13,148 nucleotides of DNA from a virus (Monodnaviria; Loebvirae; Hofneiviricota; Faserviricetes; Tubulavirales; Inoviridae). Where the stretch lies: the IMG/VR virus record IMGVR_UViG_638341089_000007; one strand, written 5' to 3'. Under the pieces are notes generated by a model, which was given only the letters and a program-made list of their open reading frames with translations, made no database searches and was not told the origin of the DNA. The stretch's first letter is position 1. The number at the start of each line of letters is the position of its first letter. The translations under genes were made by a program, and so were the position numbers. Below, piece by piece: positions 3,652-11,950 of this stretch.

Positions 3652-3684
3652 GGTGCGCATAATGTACGACTCGTTATGTTGAAA
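3652..3684 (+). other. dif: dif-like Xer recombination site at the left prophage junction (attL): XerC arm + 11-bp spacer + XerD-like arm
   Basis: GGTGCGCATAA (3652-3662) is identical to the XerC arm of E. coli dif (GGTGCGCATAATGTATATTATGTTAAAT); then TGTACGACTCG (3663-3673) and TTATGTTGAAA (3674-3684, 9/11 to the XerD arm). Lies 78 bp after the hipA stop, where dif sits in K-12. Confidence 0.75.
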
Positions 3685-3722
3685 AGGCCGCTGCGAAAAT
3701 AGAATCCCGCAGCGGCCTCTTT
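3685..3722 (-). terminator. GC-rich hairpin (11-bp perfect stem) after the stop of the 234-aa gene; probable terminator of the minus-strand operon
   Basis: AGGCCGCTGCG (3685-3695) / CGCAGCGGCCT (3708-3718) with a 12-nt loop; on the - strand the stem is followed by TTTC; it abuts the XerD-like arm of the dif-like site. Confidence 0.5.
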
Positions 3723-3748
3723 AGCATAACGTCATTGTGCGAACCAAT

Positions 3749-4453
3749 TCATAATGCTGCGGGAGCCACGTAATAGACAATCACAAATACAGCTAATGCT
3801 CCACCTGCTCTTACCCAGTTTGATATTTTGACTTCTATAAACCCGGGTATAAATGAGACTACCCCAGCAACTGCTGCTGAAAGAATTATTCGAAAGAAAG
3901 TGTATTGAAAGTTCGTTGGATTAGGTATAAATATTGCGATTATTATAAAAAGAATAACAAGTAAAATGCCAAAGCTAAATGCCGCTATTCTCTCGTGTGC
4001 TTTTGTCAATTTTTCTTTTCCTTTATTGTCAAATCCATATACTGGCATATCTTCATTAACGAAAAGATTCCTTATTTCTTTTGCAGAACGTTTGTCATGG
4101 GCTTTTACTATCCTTTGCATTGAAGCAAAAGCAGTGGAGCTTGGTTTAATACTATTATCATTCATTACCTCTCTATATTTTTTGTAATGAGCTAAGATAA
4201 GGTGAAGAACATCAATGCATGTTTCTGCAAGCCATTGATTCCATTGAGTATTATTTAATTCATCTACTGTTCTGTTATGTGCAGCGCAGTGTTCTAAATA
4301 GCCGAAAAAACTGTCTCCACATGAATTCACGGTATCAAAATCACATTTACCAGATAGGTAACACTCTAATGACTCAGTATATTTTTCATATAAACGCTCA
4401 ATTTCTTTTTTTTGATTATCAATGATACCGTGAACATCCATATCTGATTTCAC
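3749..4453 (-). CDS. Hypothetical 234-aa protein: Cys/His-rich N-terminal soluble domain (~155 aa) plus 2-3 C-terminal transmembrane helices; prophage accessory gene
   Basis: ORF-track ORF; start ATG overlaps the stop of the upstream 91-aa ORF (TGATG); hydrophobic C-terminus (AAFSFGILLVILFIIIAIFIP, FFRIILSAAVAGVVSFIPGFI, GGALAVFVIVYYVAPAAL); AT-rich; no family recognised. Confidence 0.65.
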   Translation of the reverse strand: MKSDMDVHGIIDNQKKEIERLYEKYTESLECYLSGKCDFDTVNSCGDSFFGYLEHCAAHNRTVDELNNTQWNQWLAETCIDVLHLILAHYKKYREVMNDNSIKPSSTAFASMQRIVKAHDKRSAKEIRNLFVNEDMPVYGFDNKGKEKLTKAHERIAAFSFGILLVILFIIIAIFIPNPTNFQYTFFRIILSAAVAGVVSFIPGFIEVKISNWVRAGGALAVFVIVYYVAPAAL

Positions 4454-4728
4454 TATCTTTTTTGTTGAGTGTTATTTGACTGGGATTGAATTTTTGCCAA
4501 TAGCGAACTTGCTTTCGATGTATTCAATCCATTACAAATCATTCTTGTAATCGGTTTTTTGTAAATTCGATGAACGATATTTTCAACTTCAGTGATGCTT
4601 TCATTGCCACTGAGTTTTTTTATCTCATTGAACATCTCCTCCAATTGTTCATTTGTTGGATGCCATTTGATTATATCTAATTCTTCCTCTAATGCTTTTT
4701 TAAAAAGGAAAACCTGAAAAGATAACAT
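4453..4728 (-). CDS. Hypothetical 91-aa protein, prophage accessory operon
   Basis: ORF-track ORF with AGGAAAG Shine-Dalgarno upstream; start is 1 nt after the stop of the upstream ORF (TAAtATG); C-terminal tail GLNTSKASSLLAKIQ is paralogous to the tail of the upstream small ORF. Confidence 0.6.
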   Translation of the reverse strand: MLSFQVFLFKKALEEELDIIKWHPTNEQLEEMFNEIKKLSGNESITEVENIVHRIYKKPITRMICNGLNTSKASSLLAKIQSQSNNTQQKR

Positions 4729-4729
4729 A

Positions 4730-5044
4730 TTACTTTCCTTGTGTTGGTTTAGTAGTGGATTGTTGAGCTTTTTCTAAAAGCCTTTTTGCTTTAGATGTGT
4801 CCAAACCATCTTGGGCAAAGCCTTGTTGCTTATCATTCTGTTTTTGTTCACTTTTTTTTGGCGTATTCATCAGTATATACTTTGACTCGTTTTGTTTATC
4901 TCGATGACTTACTTTTTGTTTAAGTTTTGCACAAACTAGAACGTGCAGTGTTGGTAATACTGCACGTTTGTACCATTCGTGGTACTTAATCCTTTTGTTT
5001 GGCAGACATGAGATCTTCTGCTGCATCTTTAGAGTAGTTATCAA
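4730..5044 (-). CDS. Hypothetical small protein, 46-104 aa depending on start; prophage accessory operon
   Basis: Maximal ORF from TTG at 5044; ATG alternatives at 5026 (overlaps the 60-aa gene) and 4870 (46 aa, leaves hairpin 4940-4968 intergenic). None has a clear Shine-Dalgarno, so the start is uncertain. C-terminal tail GLDTSKAKRLLEKAQ. Confidence 0.45.
   Translation of the reverse strand: MITTLKMQQKISCLPNKRIKYHEWYKRAVLPTLHVLVCAKLKQKVSHRDKQNESKYILMNTPKKSEQKQNDKQQGFAQDGLDTSKAKRLLEKAQQSTTKPTQGK
4940..4968 (-). promoter_or_regulatory. Perfect inverted repeat ACGTGCAGT-N9-ACTGCACGT; candidate operator or attenuator/terminator
   Basis: 9-10 bp perfect palindromic arms (4941-4949 / 4959-4967) just downstream of the stop of the RHH-like gene on the - strand; no strong T-tract follows. 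Confidence 0.4.
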
Positions 5045-5168
5045 TCAGATAACCTAAAATCTCTGTCCATGTAATTGTTTTTCCTAGTTTTACACTGGCA
5101 TTTATAGCCAGTCGTTCTAGTTTCATTTTTCTTTCTTCCGTCACGTTATAAGTCGTGCGCTTTGCCAT
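4986..5168 (-). CDS. Putative ribbon-helix-helix (CopG/Arc-like) transcriptional regulator, 60 aa; candidate phage repressor
   Basis: ORF-track ORF divergent from gII; pattern consistent with RHH: beta strand RTTYNVT, helix A EERKMKLERLAINA, turn GKT, helix B WTEILGYLIDNY. Placement resembles the divergent repressor of CTX-type inoviruses. Fold assignment is by eye. Confidence 0.5.
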   Translation of the reverse strand: MAKRTTYNVTEERKMKLERLAINASVKLGKTITWTEILGYLIDNYSKDAAEDLMSAKQKD

Positions 5169-5337
5169 TTTTTACGCTCGTTCAATGCAATATTTGAAGT
5201 GAGTATACATGCTCATGAACTCATATCATCCAAGCCTCTTGAACTCACTAGCTCACTGATGTAATGTTAAAACACTAATGAACTACTGAACTCATGTGTT
5301 AGTAAGTCGTCATTTTTGCAATTTTGAGGATTTATTC
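5169..5337. promoter_or_regulatory. Divergent control region between the RHH regulator and gII, with TGAACTCA direct repeats and a candidate sigma70 promoter for gII
   Basis: TGAACTCA at 5216, 5240, 5287 plus TGAACTAC at 5279 (spacings 24, 39 and 8 bp); TTGAAC (5239-5244) - 17 bp - TAATGT (5262-5267) as candidate -35/-10; GAGGA Shine-Dalgarno at 5326-5330. Confidence 0.4.
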
Positions 5338-11183: not shown

Positions 11184-11224
11184 TGGATAGCGGGTAGGTG
11201 CGTGAGCCCTGCTCGCTATCCATC
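11182..11224 (+). other. Long hairpin immediately after gIV; candidate packaging signal and/or gIV terminator
   Basis: GATGGATAGCG (11182-11192) / CGCTATCCATC (11214-11224), 11-bp perfect stem with further pairing inside the 21-nt loop; no T-tract follows. In Ff phages the packaging-signal hairpin sits right after gIV. Confidence 0.4.
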
Positions 11225-11252
11225 AAATGGACATTATTGATTGGGGTAACTA

Positions 11253-11561
11253 ATGGATTCTTATGGGATTTTATCTGCTCTGGCAGAACGAACGATTACA
11301 GCGGAAGAAGCAAAAACAATGACACTTGCAGCCAGAAGTTCTTCGGCTCAGGTAAATGAAGCATCACTTGCTCTGTTACTGATTGATAATACTCTGGATG
11401 CGATCAAAGCAGCTGCCAGTGAAGGGAAAGGATACACTTTACTTCCTTCTTATGAGATTTCTTTAAAAGCCATTGATTTAGCAGAAGAATTTTTAAGGAA
11501 ACAATGCGGCTATGTTATTGATAACCAGAATGGCGTAAGGACGGTCTATTGGTTTATATGA
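11253..11561 (+). CDS. Hypothetical 102-aa protein (predicted helical), non-core prophage gene
   Basis: ORF-track ORF between gIV and the dif-like site; no family recognised. Confidence 0.5.
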   Translation: MDSYGILSALAERTITAEEAKTMTLAARSSSAQVNEASLALLLIDNTLDAIKAAASEGKGYTLLPSYEISLKAIDLAEEFLRKQCGYVIDNQNGVRTVYWFI

Positions 11562-11562
11562 T

Positions 11563-11607
11563 AACCCCGGACAGTGACAAAACTTGCTTTTGTTAGTGTC
11601 CGGGGTT
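11563..11607 (+). other. Imperfect long hairpin after the 102-aa ORF; candidate terminator or ssDNA origin-like structure
   Basis: AACCCCGGACA (11563-11573) / TGTCCGGGGTT (11597-11607) with inner pairing ACAAAA/TTTTGT; a T7 run follows only about 20 nt downstream (11628-11634). Confidence 0.35.
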
Positions 11608-11678
11608 GGCCAAGCCGAACAATTCTGTTTTTTTAGCGTTATTGCTGATTCGGCGCGGCAGCATTACGAGGAGATAAA

Positions 11679-11912
11679 ATGCAATTTTTCACATCCAGCG
11701 ATACTGTAATGTTATGTGCGAAGACCTGCGATCGCTGTGGTCGCCATGCGAAGACGGTGGTAGATGACATTGAGTTCAATGAGTTTCTGTCTGTTAATCA
11801 CTTAGCTGGATACGGTTCAATTTTTGGTGACAGTAATCGCTTAAAACTGGATTTATGCCAACATTGCCTGAAAGACGTCCTGGGCCAGTGGATTACGGTC
11901 TGTGACCAATGA
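11679..11912 (+). CDS. Hypothetical 77-aa protein with two Cys pairs (Zn-ribbon-like), non-core prophage gene
   Basis: Strong Shine-Dalgarno GAGGAG 5 nt before ATG 11679; CDRC (aa 17-20) and CQHC (aa 60-63) suggest a zinc ribbon; no family recognised. Confidence 0.55.
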   Translation: MQFFTSSDTVMLCAKTCDRCGRHAKTVVDDIEFNEFLSVNHLAGYGSIFGDSNRLKLDLCQHCLKDVLGQWITVCDQ

Positions 11913-11950
11913 CGGCACCGGTAACGCCAGTTCCCACCATCCTTACCATT

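Follow-up and report, generated by a model that had tools for sequence, protein, structure and literature searches.

The window in the present study, by which we mean the whole stretch of 13,148 nucleotides (nt) filed as IMG/VR virus record IMGVR_UViG_638341089_000007 (Inoviridae), carries a head-to-tail array of an integrase-less filamentous prophage at the Escherichia coli dif site, which serves in the resolution of chromosome dimers, beside hipBA. This element is very probably a member of the already described UPΦ group, i.e., the M13/IKe-like, tandem, Xer-dependent prophages at dif, with integration of the CTXΦ type proposed. It is real but ordinary, and it is already known. A preliminary description of the same DNA had proposed an integrase-less Ff/IKe-like inovirus prophage at dif beside hipBA that depends on the host Xer system, and this proposal was supported by profile searches and a comparison with dif. 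No match to a recombinase family was found in profile searches for any of the 14 open reading frames (ORFs), which cover 92% of the repeat unit, in agreement with the earlier statement that no integrase is encoded. Since the element encodes no integrase and is inserted at dif, the prophage is considered to be dependent on host Xer recombination.

Insertion at dif and tandem arrangement

Regarding the insertion site, GGTGCGCATAATGTA at 3652-3666 is identical to the first 15 nt of the 28-bp E. coli dif, namely, the 11-nt XerC arm and the TGTA of the central region, and this dif-like start lies 78 nt past the stop of hipA (2251-3573, plus strand), which was identified by ORF calling and from the RefSeq annotation of the 99.9% identical locus in E. 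coli RIVM_C029670 (L001, NZ_CP134718). The complete dif of K-12 MG1655 is located 76 nt past hipA in the same orientation as in the window, and the 78-nt chromosomal spacer (3574-3651) aligns with the 76-nt spacer of K-12. A match to the XerC arm 78 bp after hipA, at the position of dif in K-12, had been noted previously, and an alignment of this flank to K-12 had been named as a check; the alignment confirmed the position, and the match was found to extend even to 15 nt. At 3652, GC content changes from ~0.47 to 0.32-0.42. The sequence of dif was confirmed in K-12 and in RIVM_C029670, and the window contains no full dif.

Positions 3650-4849 recur at 11949-13148 with 100% identity over 1200 nt and a period of 8299 nt, and the 15-nt match to dif is present at 3652 and again at 11951. 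Position 11950 is the end of copy 1 and not of the prophage, and the window comprises copy 1 and 1.2 kb of copy 2 (11951-13148, plus strand), the latter containing the attachment region attP, ORF A, ORF B, and the start of ORF C before it stops at the end of the window. The junction between the two copies (11951-12044, plus strand) contains complete attP1 and attP2 sites and is preceded by phage sequence (…CCTTACCATT), not by chromosome. The span of 3652-11950 assigned to the element in the preliminary description is correct for one repeat unit, not for the whole prophage, the tandem arrangement of which had been missed.

The 99.9% identical prophage of RIVM_C029670 consists of two copies followed by a perfect 28-bp dif (…CCTTACCATT-GGTGCGCATAATGTATATTATGTTAAAT). 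The arrays of UM146 and ECONIH2, which contain one and three copies, respectively, each end in a perfect dif, and a perfect dif also closes the array of UTI89. Among 5426 complete E. coli genomes, the phage was detected in 48, with a median of 2 places per genome, and single-copy prophages are found in UM146 and BH100. Fifteen phage-matching places were observed in E. coli EC5502 (NZ_CP092647.1), which represent either an amplified array of ~125 kb or an assembly effect.

Short-read assemblies often collapse or mis-join repeats of this kind, and many stand-alone contigs of 8.2-8.3 kb exist, such that the duplication might be regarded as an artefact of assembly, with a single prophage or an episomal replicative form as its source. 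We consider this to be highly improbable because chromosome, copy 1, and the start of copy 2 are contiguous in the window, two to three copies are present at this site in complete long-read genomes that are independent of it (those in ECONIH2 being non-identical), and, according to the literature, UPΦ and YpfΦ normally occur as tandem arrays.

Assignment to UPΦ

The UPΦ viruses, including UPΦ901, were described by Shapiro and Putonti (Virus Evol 2020; PMC7307601). UPΦ901 was reported to stand at ~70% to IKe/I2-2, with its genes II and V at >85% to YpfΦ and all other genes at <20%, and in this group gene IV is followed by two novel genes, ORFs beside dif are in reverse orientation, with one being conserved and the others variable, the junctions of the tandem arrays correspond to dif over its first 15 nt, the GGGES linker of g3p varies, and virions were detected in culture supernatants (PMC7307601). 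In the same study, ECONIH2 was named as the carrier of a UPΦ tandem triple, the copies of which contain every UPΦ901 gene (PMC7307601). The window is 99.7-99.9% identical to prophages in more than 20 complete E. coli genomes, ECONIH2 included; nucleotide identity to the hipA-proximal copy of ECONIH2 is 99.7% with the cargo genes included, and the two ORFs after gene IV, of 102 and 77 amino acids (aa), have protein accessions identical to those in all three ECONIH2 copies. Based on the IKe-like virion mosaic, genes II and V of the YpfΦ type, the pair of ORFs behind gene IV, the ORFs in reverse orientation by dif, and the identity to ECONIH2, the element is assigned to UPΦ with the confidence given above.

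The full inovirus core of genes II, V, VII, IX, VIII, III, VI, I, and IV was found in Ff order by Pfam and PHROGs matches, with VII and IX being recognizable only in the intact relative RIVM_C029670; the order II-V-(VII/IX)-VIII-III-VI-I-IV that had been read from the sequence is, therefore, borne out by these matches. We compared the encoded proteins with those of IKe and of the dif prophage of UTI89 (O18:K1:H7), which was taken as a CUS-1-type stand-in from the clone of the strain and the published gene content. Gene II with an in-frame gene X (5338-6390; all core genes are on the plus strand) encodes a rolling-circle replication initiator of the CUS-1/YpfΦ type (Phage_CRI 3e-70, G2P_X_C 5e-29), which is 85% identical at the aa level to its UTI89 counterpart and 23% identical over a fragment to that of IKe, while the single-stranded DNA (ssDNA)-binding protein encoded by gene V (6402-6719; Putative_G5P 7e-51) is 93% identical to that of UTI89 and has no match in IKe.

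The virion and assembly proteins show the opposite pattern. The major coat protein pVIII (6905-7147; Phage_coatGP8 5e-19), the attachment protein pIII with pilus-binding and TolA-binding-type domains (7194-8474; G3P_pilus-bind 6e-26, Phage_Coat_A 8e-6), the minor coat protein pVI (8474-8815; DUF5455, phrog_1944), and the Zot-family assembly ATPase pI (8816-9910; Zot 3e-40, phrog_1675 "protein I of M13") are 60, 51, 52, and 66% (65.7%) identical at the aa level to those of IKe, respectively, pI being 52.5% identical to that of M13, and pVII is 70% identical to that of IKe. The outer-membrane secretin pIV (9918-11183; Secretin, Secretin_N, and GspD N0 domains, phrog_1012 "protein IV of M13") is 71% identical to that of IKe and 27% identical to that of UTI89. 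No tblastn match was obtained in the UTI89 prophage for pVII, pVIII, pIII, pVI, pI, or the accessory ORFs. The resemblance of pVIII, pVI, pI, and pIV to IKe proteins, which had been recognized by eye, was thus measured at 60, 52, 66, and 71%. The glycine-rich linker of pIII is encoded by 15-nt repeats (7793-7957). Genes annotated as "Zot" and "GspD" at this locus need to be read as those for the phage assembly proteins pI and pIV.

The phage is, judged from these alignments, a mosaic in which VII, IX, VIII, III, VI, I, and IV are IKe-like (Lineavirus) and II/X, V, and the attachment region of ~95 nt are of the CUS-1/YpfΦ type. This composition bears on the possibility that the element is CUS-1 of E. 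coli K1 or YpfΦ of Yersinia pestis itself, or a close variant. The insertion site, orientation, and tandem habit are alike, attP is 99% identical, and genes II/V are 80% identical at the nt level and 85-93% at the aa level to those of the UTI89 prophage. However, the nt regions common to the window and the UTI89 prophage are, in total, genes II/V (5339-6726, 80%), 3652-3747 (99%), 41 nt directly before the junction, 80 nt close to the regulator gene, and a 106-nt element at 11560-11665; beyond II/V, attP, and these short pieces there is no alignment, and pIV reaches only 27%. The 13 ORFs of the UTI89 prophage instead include those for a 148-aa helix-turn-helix repressor, a DUF2523 protein, a 341-aa Zot protein, a 520-aa adsorption protein, and a GspD-type secretin. 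Furthermore, CUS-1 and YpfΦ were reported to be 99% identical over 7.1 kb (PMC4266046), which is not the case for the window and the UTI89 stand-in. Considering these differences, identity with CUS-1 or YpfΦ is very unlikely. The preliminary description had likened the element to CUS-1 and Ypf and left its identity open; the likeness holds for Xer dependence at dif, and the element is neither of the two, sharing only II/V and attP with them. The appropriate label is a UPΦ-type (Lineavirus-like) Xer-dependent prophage array, a correction of little significance beyond annotation.

A search for distant relatives of genes II and V in E. coli genomes yielded 48 genomes with a match of at least 99% and 104 with a match of ~80%, with the K1 uropathogen UTI89 being among the latter. 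The prophage of UM146 was also tried as a representative of CUS-1 and was rejected because it has the backbone of the window and is a UPΦ with other cargo. When 50,697 phage records, a set without CUS-1, YpfΦ, and UPΦ, were searched with the unit by megablast, the only matches were short parts of gene IV in IKe and Erwinia PEar. No Y. pestis locus was returned by a pI scan of genome contigs, a literature search for CUS-1 together with UTI89 found no paper, and no Yersinia name was present among the listed cluster members of the UTI89 prophage proteins; the link between UTI89 and CUS-1/YpfΦ is, accordingly, one that we infer.

Attachment region and mode of integration

The left attachment site attL, which equals attP1 (3652-3684, plus strand), consists of the XerC arm GGTGCGCATAA (3652-3662), an 11-nt spacer TGTACGACTCG (3663-3673), and an XerD-like arm TTATGTTGAAA (3674-3684) with 9/11 matches to dif. 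Since the first 15 nt are identical to dif, the crossover is placed within 3652-3666. An inverted dif-like site, attP2 (3719-3745, minus strand; GGTTCGCACAA-TGACG-TTATGCTAAAG, inverted repeat I2), pairs with attP1 in the (+) single strand, and a GC-rich inner stem-loop (3686-3717; GGCCGCTGCG, a 12-nt loop, and CGCAGCGGCC) forms the tip of the attP hairpin between convergent ORFs, where it may also act as a bidirectional terminator. When folded in silico as ssDNA, the (+) strand of attP adopts one long forked hairpin with a free energy of -31.2 kcal/mol (z = -8.4 versus shuffles), and the consensus fold of five copies contains 38 pairs, with one G-C to A-T compensatory pair in the Rosenbergiella and Izhakiella phages.

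The spacers of attP1 and attP2 are 11 and 5 nt, and those of the CTXΦ attP are 12 and 7 nt (PMC3089051). The homology of the central region to dif is limited to the XerC side: TGTA is common, followed by CGACTCG in the phage versus TA in dif. Both junctions were observed as predicted if the (+) strand is exchanged where XerC cleaves, with the left junction being chromosome-GGTGCGCATAA-TGTACGACTCG… and the right junction, in relatives, being …CCTTACCATT-GGTGCGCATAA-TGTATA-TTATGTTAAAT-chromosome. The attP sites of CUS-1 and YpfΦ have been described as built for direct ssDNA integration and listed with that of CTXΦ (PMC3089051; PMC4246890), and because attP of the window is 99% identical to the CUS-1 type, which reviews class with CTXΦ, the CTX-type class is applied to the element of the window. 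These features suggest that integration is probably of the CTXΦ type, i.e., a single-strand process that uses XerC only.

The main alternative is integration of the VGJΦ type, in which a double-stranded replicative form recombines via a single dif-like site in a reversible manner, such that the prophage is excisable. The perfect XerC arm of attP1 and the 4 nt of central homology on the XerC side are features of VGJ-type sites, and insertions of YpfΦ between resident copies, at the imperfect site, have been reported (PMC4266046). On the other hand, inspection of the canonical spacing of 6-7 nt revealed no XerD arm (5/11 and 3/11 matches), and the good XerD-like arm lies 11 nt off, as in the non-functional duplex attP1 of CTXΦ. 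A VGJ-type element has no need of a second, inverted site, yet such a site is conserved in the element of the window and forms pairs with the first. The missing XerD arm at the canonical spacing and the conservation of attP2 both disfavor the VGJ-type route, which we regard as unlikely.

Under the CTXΦ-type mechanism, the packaged (+) strand is predicted in silico to fold such that attP1 pairs with the inverted attP2, which would yield a forked hairpin that mimics dif. Host XerC and XerD would then bind this hairpin, and XerC would exchange one pair of strands with dif just after GGTGCGCATAA, aided by the shared TGTA, with replication resolving the integration intermediate, as in CTXΦ. The expected outcome is that the integrated phage begins, next to hipA, with a hybrid site whose spacer is too long and is followed at its other end by an intact dif, an arrangement that is present in the sequences. 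The intact dif would continue to resolve chromosome dimers and may accept further copies, giving rise to tandem arrays. Because duplex sites are poor Xer substrates, progeny (+) strands would most likely be produced by pII-driven rolling-circle replication from one copy into the next, and they may be extruded through pI/pIV without killing the cell. We infer XerC-only catalysis, irreversibility, and rolling-circle progeny across tandem copies by analogy with CTXΦ.

Several points weigh against the interpretation of the window as a UPΦ array integrated in this manner. The structural covariation in attP amounts to one compensatory pair among four distinct sequences. The ssDNA/XerC-only route is a proposal made for CUS-1 and YpfΦ, and its application to UPΦ is carried over from them. 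Superinfecting YpfΦ genomes were found inserted between resident copies (PMC4266046), which is not predicted by a simple CTX model, and the single-copy prophages would be non-productive if progeny arise by rolling-circle replication across tandem copies. Moreover, the array extends past the window, such that its right end and the intact dif were read from relatives, copy 1 as sequenced is without intact genes VII and IX, and membership in UPΦ was decided from the published description and from ECONIH2 as a proxy for UPΦ901.

Scrambled stretch of genes VII and IX

The region of genes VII and IX (6722-6904, plus strand), which encodes a pVII of 28 aa and a pIX of 31 aa in intact relatives, is scrambled in the window. 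In comparison with RIVM_C029670, the window carries one substitution (1757) and 18 one-base deletions without any insertion, and all of the deletions fall within 153 nt (6732-6884) that cover genes VII/IX and the leader of gene VIII. Each deletion shortens a homopolymer run, affecting 18 of the 41 runs in this stretch versus none of ~2600 elsewhere in the 13.1 kb, and none of the deletions was found in 104 copies from 48 other genomes. The deletions destroy gene VII, the Inovirus_G7P_2 match of which is present in the intact relative and lost in the window, as well as gene IX, the intact form of which aligns with IKe pIX. The preliminary description had placed VII/IX in their canonical position; this is true of the relatives, in which both genes are intact, and the frameshifts in the window had been missed.

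Copy 1 might alternatively be a decaying, defective prophage in which the 18 frameshifting deletions are real mutations. The deletions are present in the given sequence and abolish the Pfam match of pVII; however, clustered one-base losses that affect homopolymers only and occur in no other copy are typical of consensus errors, not of mutation, and real decay is accordingly quite improbable. The deletions are very probably a local consensus error in the source assembly. Should they be real, pVII and pIX would have to be supplied to copy 1 by copy 2. In either case, this stretch of the window, being probably erroneous, is unfit for gene calls.

Cargo genes beside attP

Three ORFs on the minus strand lie next to attP: ORF A (230 aa, 3749-4441; phrog_5814 "unknown function"), which has a helical N-terminal domain and three C-terminal transmembrane helices, ORF B (91 aa, 4453-4728; phrog_6502), and ORF C (46 aa, 4730-4870; phrog_6875, in the C-terminal half only), the latter two being annotated as hypothetical. 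No Pfam, PADLOC, or NCBIfam family was above noise for these ORFs, and a Foldseek search of the PDB with the AlphaFold2 model of ORF A (pLDDT 85) returned nothing at E < 0.9. Residues ~150-230 of ORF A form a conserved three-helix membrane module with invariant G, P, G, G, and F positions, which is fused in other bacteria to ankyrin repeats, DUF4019, or other unrelated N- or C-terminal domains. A membrane-acting role in exclusion or defence is a guess for this protein.

The cargo block (3754-4916, 1.16 kb) is exchangeable. UM146 and two of the three ECONIH2 copies have a backbone that is 98% identical over 3652-3753 and 4917-11950, with other ORFs replacing 3754-4916, and the cargo set of the window (230/91/46 aa) was found with 100% identity in 22 of the 48 phage-carrying complete E. 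coli genomes. In ECONIH2 (L084, 17652-42654), the hipA-proximal copy has the cargo of the window, and the other two have a 159-aa protein, a zinc-binding protein of the ECs_2282 family, and a 140-aa membrane protein. The genes beside attP are swapped between copies even within one array. A near-identical membrane protein of 140-143 aa occupies the cargo position in UM146 (L002, 7541-7963), UTI89 (L083, 7860-8282), and a Rosenbergiella phage (L004, 5625-6056), and the sharing of this protein by three phages indicates that cargo genes cross phage lineages. We tentatively suggest, as a possibility that is still doubtful, that 3754-4916 is a functional exchangeable cassette for superinfection exclusion, anti-phage defence, or host modulation, which the UPΦ and CUS-1 lineages have exchanged by recombining at the boundaries that they have in common, at attP and the regulator. 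If so, the dif-proximal end of the phage represents a cargo hotspot analogous to the position of ctxAB in CTXΦ.

Other features of the window and relatives in other genomes

The chromosomal left flank contains, in addition to hipA, yneE (1-915), tam (919-1677, minus strand), and hipB (1985-2251), which were assigned in the same manner as hipA. A 60-aa ORF (4986-5168, minus strand) that is divergent from gene II belongs to phrog_2503 and is probably "h3" of the UPΦ report. It is 100% identical in UM146, 63% identical in the Izhakiella and Rosenbergiella phages, and kept in all UPΦ copies examined, and its position is that of the helix-turn-helix gene in the CUS-1-type prophage of UTI89. Neither a helix-turn-helix nor any other Pfam match was obtained for this ORF, nor was there a sequence match in the PDB; its position and conservation make it a candidate regulator. 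The accessory ORFs after gene IV, on the plus strand, encode 102 aa (11253-11561; phrog_4115, probably UPΦ "h1") and 77 aa with a CxxC...CxxC motif (11679-11912; phrog_5435, probably UPΦ "h2"), and no Pfam, PADLOC, or NCBIfam family was above noise for either.

A hairpin with 20-nt arms (11179-11227, plus strand; inverted repeat I8) overlaps the end of gene IV. The terminator/morphogenetic-signal stem-loop of IKe (annotated at 6141-6196) is at the equivalent position, and this correspondence makes the hairpin a candidate packaging signal. A conserved non-coding element of 106 nt (11560-11665, plus strand) is 88% identical to the UTI89 prophage and 85% identical to the Izhakiella phage L003, and contains a 20-bp hairpin at 11563-11607 with a z of -5.2 when folded as ssDNA and one compensatory stem change in the contig L006. 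This element is common to phages that differ in both their replication and virion modules. It is a candidate replication origin or other cis site, possibly one recognized by the host. No Rfam family matched in the window, a scan for promoter consensus gave 11 hits, i.e., fewer than the shuffle mean of 22.5, and terminator hits were average versus shuffles.

Relatives were also encountered outside E. coli. An 8271-nt contig of Izhakiella australiensis (L003), with 336x coverage, has the appearance of a whole phage genome that is circular or collapsed. It has the attP hairpin and the virion and assembly genes of the window (79-96% aa), and no match to genes II/V of the window was found in it; its modules are reshuffled in yet another manner. 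In Rosenbergiella gaditana (L004), the chromosome and the phage are separated by a 2.66-kb island (2140-4804) with dif-like half sites at its ends, which encodes an Hcp-like protein (3034-3516) and also contains amidase-like ORFs and a resolvase-like remnant; this island may be a separate Xer-dependent element stacked at dif. Contigs filed as Paenibacillus (L005), a Nanosynbacter metagenome-assembled genome (L006), and Actinomadura (L013) contain this inovirus or another enterobacterial one related to it, with pI being 100, 98, and 54% identical, respectively, and L006 includes E. coli-like dif flanks. Contamination or mis-binning is the most likely explanation for L005 and L006.

Comparison with known systems

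Like the element of the window, UPΦ has IKe-like structural genes and YpfΦ-like II/V, with two ORFs behind gene IV and others in reverse orientation by dif; its junctions match dif over 15 nt, its GGGES linker is variable, and its arrays are tandem. The unit of UPΦ901 is 7560 nt, whereas that of the window is 8299 nt (8317 nt without the 18 deletions), the difference being due to the variable ORFs next to dif, and the scrambling of genes VII/IX is found in the window only.

IKe and I2-2 (Lineavirus) and, more distantly, the Ff phages (M13/fd/f1) match the window in their gene order and structural and assembly proteins and have a hairpin at the end of gene IV. However, IKe and I2-2 are non-integrating phages without dif-like sites or accessory ORFs and with different genes II and V, and the accessory ORFs of the window stand where IKe has its intergenic region.

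CTXΦ of Vibrio cholerae also has two inverted dif-like sites, one of which has an over-long spacer (12 nt versus 11 nt in the window), that fold in the (+) strand, and its homology confined to the XerC side, regeneration of dif, and tandem arrays are, on paper, as in the element of the window. There is no sequence relationship between the two beyond the Xer arms, and the dif of the host differs. The hairpin of CTXΦ spans ~150 nt, whereas the window has a hairpin of ~95 nt and no toxin genes.

CUS-1 (E. coli O18:K1:H7) and YpfΦ (Yersinia pestis 1.ORI) are similarly integrase-less prophages at dif that are tandem and followed by an intact 3' dif, which for the element of the window was seen in RIVM_C029670, UM146, and ECONIH2. 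As measured via UTI89, they have the attP hairpin (99%), II/V (85-93% aa), and the 106-nt non-coding element (88%) in common with the window, whereas there is little or no relationship between the genes for the virion, assembly, and regulation, and the window is without a helix-turn-helix repressor gene. UPΦ has taken over the attachment hairpin of CUS-1/YpfΦ nearly unchanged, at 99% identity, together with a different virion module, and this retention indicates that replication and integration travel as one module.

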